Below, one piece after another: positions 24,330 to 24,540 of a DNA stretch of 64,000 nucleotides. Under the pieces are notes generated by a model. It worked only from the letters and a program-made list of their open reading frames with translations. It was not told the origin of the DNA and did no database searches. Position 1 is the stretch's first letter. Each line of letters opens with the position of its first letter. The position numbers and the translations under genes are program-made. Origin of the DNA: Octopus vulgaris (Eukaryota); assembly GCA_951406725.2 (NCBI GenBank), contig OX597836.1, positions 41,168,001-41,232,000 on the forward strand, written 5' to 3'.

Positions 24330-24540
24330 ATTTATTATATAGAAGGAGCTTCTACAGGACTAGAACTGTTTCATTCAAGAGAAATCTTCAGGAAGCTCCT
24401 GAGCTTCCTGAAGATTTCTCTTGAATGAAACAGTTCTAGTCCTGTAGAAGCTCCTTCTATATAATAAATTAATTTTACTCTGCTATGTATTGAGTACCTT
24501 ATTTACTGTGGTTAACCCCGAATCAACCCGGGACCTACAT
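24330..24540. mobile_element. Palindromic twin-hammerhead element family A, copy 1, inserted in (TA)n
   Basis: Perfect ~69-bp inverted arms 24330-24398 / 24401-24469 plus ~70-bp unique tail; second copy 49058-49259. Confidence 0.85.
24401..24453 (+). ncRNA. Type I hammerhead ribozyme (mirror copy on minus strand 24346-24398)
   Basis: Stem I GAGCTTC/GAAGCTC, core CTGAAGA, stem II TTC tctt GAA (U.U at base), GAA, stem III ACAG/CTGT, GUA site (cut after 24446). Confidence 0.8.

Follow-up and report, generated by a model that had tools for sequence, protein, structure and literature searches.

Several described systems come close to the sequences considered here. Members of the Hydra clade of Penelope-like elements (PLEs) carry a hammerhead ribozyme in their terminal repeats, target (TA)n and occur as tandem and inverted copies with a tail on one side, according to the parts of the clade description that deal with element structure (Craig et al. 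2021, PMC8557442); the same parts name the origin of tandem or inverted ends with a one-sided tail as an open task. An inverted, truncated copy with such a tail is a known PLE pattern, at least as set out in the relevant sections of two accounts (PMC8557442; PMC3846280). In Adineta vaga, Pen2a and Pen3a show an inverted pLTR, a tail, short palindromes and solo pLTRs (Arkhipova et al. 2013, PMC3846280). The sections devoted to these elements describe an inverted pLTR overlapping the direct one, an optional tail, and a TATA box and initiator within the pLTR; they report very few copies and ascribe solo pLTRs to recombination or deletion, not run-off. For the green anole element PAc/Poseidon, which belongs to another clade, in vitro work has demonstrated cutting and extension of both strands, two internal reverse transcriptase (RT) start sites that bound the tail, and the use of uncleaved RNA as template (Frangieh et al. 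2024, PMC11167929). Its main text leaves the later integration steps open and deals with neither the cap nor the head-to-head junction. Animal non-LTR retrozymes, finally, have a type I hammerhead and a PLE ancestry, as described by Li, Clavereau and Pollet (2026, 10.64898/2026.07.22.740005); they are also the subject of Cervera and de la Pena (2020, PMC7229834).

The window analyzed here, a stretch of 64,000 nucleotides of Octopus vulgaris DNA, contains two insertions related to these systems, which are its sole non-simple exact palindromes with arms of at least 20 bp. A preliminary description had reported long perfect arms, a hammerhead motif on each strand and a one-sided tail within (TA)n, all of which stand. 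The exact arms measure 69 bp each in copy 1 (24330-24398 and 24401-24469, spacer CT) and 66 bp each in copy 2 (49128-49193 and 49194-49259, no spacer, center AG|CT). Every arm spells, in order, AGCTTC (stem I), CTGAAGA, stem II, GAA, ACAG/CTGT, GTA and GAAGCT, and the tail is 69 bp in both copies (24470-24538; 49059-49127). As had also been noted, the loop III base is common to both arms within each copy. Stem I, given then as GAGCTTC, needs a correction: AGCTTC is native, but the leading G is foreign to the element and is missing from copy 2.

In copy 1, the tail-less arm (24330..24398) runs from +1, where stem I begins, to about +68; it has an additional G at 24398, and the hammerhead motif that it carries on the minus strand has a predicted cut after 24353. 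A filler, CT (24399..24400), lies between the arms. On the plus strand, a non-native G (24401; the native base is T) precedes the putative transcription start at 24402, where the type I hammerhead motif begins (24402..24452; core CTGAAGA, weak stem II, stem III ACAG/CTGT). Stem I pairs 24402-24407 with 24447-24452, and the structure evaluation places the cut after 24446, as previously proposed. The AT-rich arm end (24453..24469) is a candidate inner RT start site; the tail (24470..24538) corresponds to the 5′ leader of the element's open reading frame (ORF), and its end would be the outer one. The (TA)n target, in which any target-site duplication would be masked, flanks the insertion on the left (24218..24329, start approximate) and on the right (24539..24571). 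The center suggests that the left arm gained a brief templated stretch, CTGA, made up of the filler CT and the GA that follows it; thus extended, this arm would have joined the right arm via GA/TC, with an extra base on each. In copy 2, the tailed arm (49059..49195, minus strand; tail 49059-49127) and the tail-less arm (49192..49259, plus strand) have the self-complementary AGCT at 49192-49195 in common. This copy is of another subfamily, with A in loop III and C in the tail. No PLE ORF remnant was found in the 64-kb window.

The core of the palindrome is not a chance arrangement, since its 31-mer has 3,335 exact matches genome-wide (2.8 Gb) and the reversed control has none. Many of the first 100 matches are minus/plus pairs 0.3-9 kb apart, which proved to be long inverted duplications with a tail at one end only. 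The palindrome's 137 bp are the 5′ end, and also the terminal repeat, of a 5.2-kb RT-endonuclease unit that we call family A. Its full unit of 5,193 bp consists of the hammerhead, the tail, the ORF, about 3 kb of microsatellite-rich DNA and a promoter region; in tandem copies, hammerhead and tail run straight into the ORF, with the ATG at +183. One copy (L196) has a natural open frame of 718 codons, while in many others the ORF is split (506 + 225 codons in L125). Many near-identical ORF copies have the same split frame (L157-L174, L189-L206), which suggests a defective source amplified in trans. In the 718-codon frame, YRDD stands at 352 and LVY-x14-YIG close to the C terminus. RWR, in which R replaces K, is found at 43 and DKT at 121, and GxKF/Y is absent. 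The frame also has a CxCx5C linker (CNCHDKTTC, 572), a CxxC (CDLC, 672) and a CxH (CMH, 700); judged by eye, CCHH is missing. For the Hydra clade, the published alignment and its commentary give RWK as present, GxKF/Y as not conserved, DKG changed to DKT, CxCx5C, CxxC and CxH, and no CCHH (PMC8557442). Compared by eye, family A follows this alignment motif by motif, with a single ORF in which RT is followed by a C-terminal GIY-YIG-type endonuclease, RWR/DKT, CxCx5C, CxxC and CxH, and it shares the insertion into (TA)n and the hammerhead in the terminal repeat. BLASTP of its protein against a Pfam-confirmed PLE protein (P0002) gave E=1e-6; a Pfam search with the same protein returned no RT or GIY-YIG match, and a PDB search nothing informative.

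Judged from their sequence, the palindromes are the shortest insertions of a Hydra-clade PLE. As debris, the palindrome belongs to a familiar kind and does not amount to a new ribozyme system; the preliminary description had overlooked the protein-coding parent. Family A is a new family of a known clade with known architecture, including partial tandems, an inverted 5′-truncated copy and a tail at one end. We treat it as separate because its protein and hammerhead differ, by eye, from those of Hydra-1_Obim. It also departs from the clade as described in the portions of that account cited above (PMC8557442). The unit is 5.2 kb (about 3 kb of it the microsatellite-rich 3′ part), compared with generally under 3 kb, a tendency rather than a strict limit there; the tail is 69 bp, not 30-40 bp; and those portions include no dominant class of cap-ended stubs. 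With PAc/Poseidon, family A has in common an AT-rich target and, as proposed below, a tail bounded by two RT start sites, cutting and extension of both strands, and an uncleaved RNA template. In the anole element, however, translation begins within the hammerhead and RT starts are located in the ORF (PMC11167929), whereas both putative RT start sites of family A lie in the 5′ leader.

Two other PLE families, B and C, are elements separate from family A. An RT-endonuclease ORF at locus L107, considered as the palindrome's partner, turned out to be family B nested in a family A copy, and family C, with 781 codons, lacks the palindrome's repeat. PLE families nest in or abut one another via (TA)n tracts (L107 3740-6790; L104 3230-5363; L069), and the microsatellite-rich 3-kb 3′ part of family A bears target sites of its own. 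At L012, a host segment of about 10 bp on the left side of the (TA)n is repeated inverted on the right flank.

Across the genome, 824 short palindromes have their center within the 5′ strand of stem I, and inversion centers are nonrandom relative to this stem, as had been expected. Along the first 68.8 Mb of contig C1, insertions form 66 clusters, and 23 of these are such stubs. Family A insertions form a continuum from stubs to multi-kb inverted pairs with one tailed end. All 40 copies scored are 99-100% identical; the spreading of family A is recent and has left at least 800 minimal insertions. Among the first 50 stubs, 48 have one tail, one has none and one has two. The earlier proposal that the palindrome is formed anew at each insertion is borne out by 27 different centers among these 50 copies, the commonest on the tailed strand being AG|CT (12), GGAAGCTCC (8) and GGAGCTTCC (5). 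None of the 50 enters native upstream sequence, although the search pattern admits only about 10 extra bases per arm and misses longer run-ons; at L062, both arms run 9-17 nt past +1. At the outer ends, tailed arms stop at +137 in 37 of 44 scored cases, with ATAT microhomology to (TA)n, and tail-less arms end at about +68, at the same base in 28 of 45 scored, with TA microhomology.

The sharpness of the inner ends points to transcription. TATAAA lies 29 nt upstream of +1 in 157 of 159 instances, and the native base before +1 is T in all 166 read-through instances (overlapping loci counted more than once). Among 65 single-arm loci, 39 reach the A at +1, 30 of them with G in front (a single G in 28, no extra G in the remaining nine), and 26 have no A at +1. 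An untemplated 5′ G has been tied to cap copying for L1 (PMC9341517). The sharp stop of the arms together with a non-native G is likely the signature of a capped start, with the G copied from the cap; transcription and capping would thus begin at the first base of stem I. At nine loci (L305, L309, L312, L313, L316, L318, L319, L249 and L252), we saw a recurrent G-T-GCTTCC start, sometimes in one arm only, in which T replaces the +1 A and the extra G precedes it. One can speculate that this is a misreading of a modified cap-adjacent base.

Family B provides a test of this start-site rule, its start having been predicted from its TATA box and stubs then searched for there. This second young PLE family (loci L137 4900-5680, L262-L269 and L280-L299) has a 4.27-kb unit, a 32-bp tail and a minimal hammerhead with a CCGAAGA core and a palindromic helix III; some copies lack the exact core 7-mer. 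We found 89 short palindromes, most of which also have an extra base; their centers lie 30 nt below TATTTATA, and the hammerhead core follows 46 nt downstream of them. The coincidence of center and stem I in family A likely arises because stem I begins at the transcription start. For family C (L046-L052, L114), the same prediction yielded 0 palindromes; its terminal repeat has repeated CCAAT-like boxes and a TATA box, and another open frame precedes that of 781 codons.

We consider it probable, with roughly two chances in three, that a minimal PLE insertion arises when both strands of a (TA)n tract are cut and two cDNAs run off a capped 5′ end and are joined head to head. A TATA promoter in the terminal repeat would start transcription at the first base of stem I, and the enzyme would cut both (TA)n strands and prime two cDNAs. 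RT would start in the RNA leader, at +137 for the tailed arm and at about +68 for the tail-less arm. Both cDNAs would run off the capped RNA end, where the cap might template an extra base. Their 3′ ends might then join through 2-4 nt of microhomology, provided by AGCT or by the cap base, and at some junctions a templated filler would be added. A stub would result because a transcript started in the repeat leaves only 137 or 68 nt upstream of the RT starts; read-through transcripts would give rise to the long copies, and the ribozyme would mostly be uncleaved in the RNA that is copied.

Inverted ends and one-sided tails were known; what is new is that arms stop at a single position, 29 nt downstream of a TATA box, and have the non-native G. 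Among the openly accessible papers covered by our literature search, none dealt with palindromes of PLEs that end at a cap or with twin priming by PLEs; subscription papers may cover these. The main text of PMC13282606, in the portion available, does not mention Hydra, palindromes or ribozymes. About 800 near-identical junctions of family A and 89 of family B constitute a natural data set on PLE integration, leading to specific tests of a capped start at one base, of two priming sites and of one RNA per event. Head-to-head run-off would explain a long-noted oddity of PLEs, would offer a reason why they need partial tandems to move whole, and would mean that the mRNA begins directly with the ribozyme.

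Alternatively, the two primings could be right without a capped start: RT would stall at a 5′-terminal stem, which would account for the stop, and cDNA snap-back over 1-3 nt would supply the extra base. There is a stem at the stop in both families, stem I in family A and, in family B, an ACAGUCA/UGACUGU hairpin in which the 5′ end sits. In both, snap-back foretells the same extra base, because the partner strand of the stem continues with C, and some centers read GAAGCTCCT, as it predicts. The presence of a TATA box in each of these unrelated families, at -29 in one and at -30 in the other, is hard to reconcile with stalling, however, as is a single G in 28 of 30 cases, where a spread would be expected, and all long copies show RT traversing the same stem. 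We think it unlikely, at about one chance in seven, that stalling rather than a capped end set the stop. Even so, junctions formed by run-off may acquire one to a few bases from a short snap-back on stem I.

Slightly less likely again is that the palindrome is a PLE stub whose second arm was copied, by the mechanism that had first been proposed, from a single cDNA that stalled and snapped back at stem I. Fold-back accounts for centers at stem I in family A and for variants that are nearly always common to both arms. The two subfamilies are about equally common, and the arms nonetheless agree in 44 of 45 scorable copies, in keeping with the preliminary claim of arm-shared variants. Mixed arms occur in 3 of about 203 perfect-centre copies, and in two of these three the tailed arm contradicts its own tail marker, which suggests a point change. 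A private variant at L232 is present in both arms. The corresponding comparison of private variants, with 1 shared and 59 unshared differences, lacks power, many of the latter being indels or coming from two aberrant loci. The GGAGCTTCC center could come from a snap-back with 2 bp and a 3-nt loop.

Other features do not fit a single cDNA. From 65 single-arm loci, we picked 18 by hand, 6 tailed and 12 tail-less, and 8 of the 12 tail-less loci have no trace of a second arm; a tail-less arm can thus form alone, and it too ends in an extra G. A tail-less cDNA is no source of a tail, nor can a tailed cDNA serve as template for a longer tail-less arm. Of 20 long loci, 4 that were nested or unpaired were dropped; in the 16 remaining pairs, the tailed arm exceeds the other in 7, the tail-less arm in 5 (perhaps 6) and the two are equal in 3, these lengths being approximate, from BLAST across microsatellite-rich DNA. 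Asymmetric junctions face both ways. The split is 8:5 among the 50 family A copies, with 8 of 13 the wrong way for fold-back, and 14:11 among the 25 loci of family B, out of 28, that could be scored. The zero-spacer AG|CT center (12 of 50) allows no intramolecular closure, and at L249 and L252 the arms differ at +1. Because the tail-less arm occurs alone and is sometimes longer, and because junctions face both ways, simple fold-back is unlikely and the earlier explanation is not supported; two primings fit, in agreement with the in vitro behavior of the anole PLE (PMC11167929). Fold-back, which also foretells arm concordance and to which the 3 of 16 symmetric long copies would conform, may be the source of a minority.

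Under two primings, arm concordance can be read together with these 3 long pairs, whose arm ends lie within 20 nt of each other (permutation p=0.005). Both observations would be expected if a single RNA were copied twice or if each cell had only one active source; the two cDNAs of an insertion thus probably share their RNA or at least the locus it came from. In L1 twin priming, both target strands prime cDNA and the products join by microhomology, the two cDNAs being copies of nonoverlapping parts of one RNA. The palindrome arms, unlike these, both cover the same bases; the extra 5′ G is as in L1. A more ambitious version, to which we give somewhat less than an even chance, is that PLEs integrate through twin priming, carried out by a dimer on a single capped RNA. 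The start sites bounding the tail would act on opposite target strands and both cDNAs would end at the cap, so that one reaction would yield the inverted repeat and the one-sided tail together; about one-third of insertions would be obligatory stubs from the start sites near the promoter. If it is true, palindrome centers are a genome-encoded map of PLE transcription starts, and a hammerhead at +1 is placed to decap its own mRNA.

It is very improbable that the palindrome is a non-autonomous unit, SINE- or MITE-like or a retrozyme, or that it is fed by tandem arrays of the hammerhead region. High copy number and near identity (40 of 40 at 99-100%) would suit such a unit, and retrozyme-like arrays do exist, but 27 distinct centers in 50 copies, stubs without a promoter or any sequence beyond the tail, and the continuum to ORF-bearing copies do not. 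The arrays, at L187 (G000:C2:64627500-64633000) and L188 (G000:C5:37480500-37490400), repeat units of 277 bp and 333 bp that comprise a family A hammerhead, the tail and the ORF start, and they occur as inverted pairs with one tailed end. Their units carry native upstream sequence and no extra G. A hammerhead tandem array without an ORF, as expected of a non-LTR retrozyme, is found at L187 and L188 and not in the palindrome, which is not a tandem unit and, on present evidence, not self-propagating. The 277- and 333-bp arrays fit the retrozyme description in the available part of the recent report (10.64898/2026.07.22.740005); they are retrozyme-like derivatives of family A. An assembly artifact is scarcely credible: microsatellite palindromes are hard to assemble and no contig examined bridges the copy 1 center by 31 bases on each side, but the centers are copy specific with non-native bases, the tail is strictly one-sided (48 of 50), the same rule appears in a second family, and a perfect-centre junction occurs as a loose end in a contig from a public run (X1).

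The ribozyme itself appears modest. By sequence and structure evaluation, the type I hammerhead core is complete (CUGANGA, GAA, A15.1-U16.1, H17, stems I and III), and stem II is weak, 3 bp with a U.U in place of the usual G10.1-C11.1. The active fold takes up 2.5% of the ensemble of a 55-mer; in the 139-nt fold, a rival 8-bp hairpin covers the cut site, and the folding z-score of the tailed arm (-0.40) is unremarkable. An Rfam scan of the window gave no match at the gathering threshold. Hammerheads of PLEs frequently show poor cleavage unless a partner or a protein is present (PMC4209133; PMC11167929). The preliminary description was right that the template reaches 5′ of the cut site. Only 17 loci have centers near the cut site compared with 824 at +1, so that most of the RNA that is copied has not been cleaved. 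Run-off at the cut could explain about 9 of these 17, a faint hint that some self-cleavage may occur. The competition once envisaged between hairpin and ribozyme is energetically one-sided, at -117 kcal/mol for the hairpin and -7.4 kcal/mol per active fold, so that in a modeled read-through transcript of the palindrome the 69-bp hairpin would outweigh the ribozyme fold. In Drosophila, siRNAs are reported to come from Penelope inverted repeats (PMC3681739).

Elsewhere in the window, positions 1-10500 are a long degenerate tandem repeat with strong G/T skew (GC skew about 0.78), and a repeat of ~184 bp is present in tandem and inverted form at 34580-34910, 40513-43910, 46846-47223, 55220-55573 and 61121-61485.
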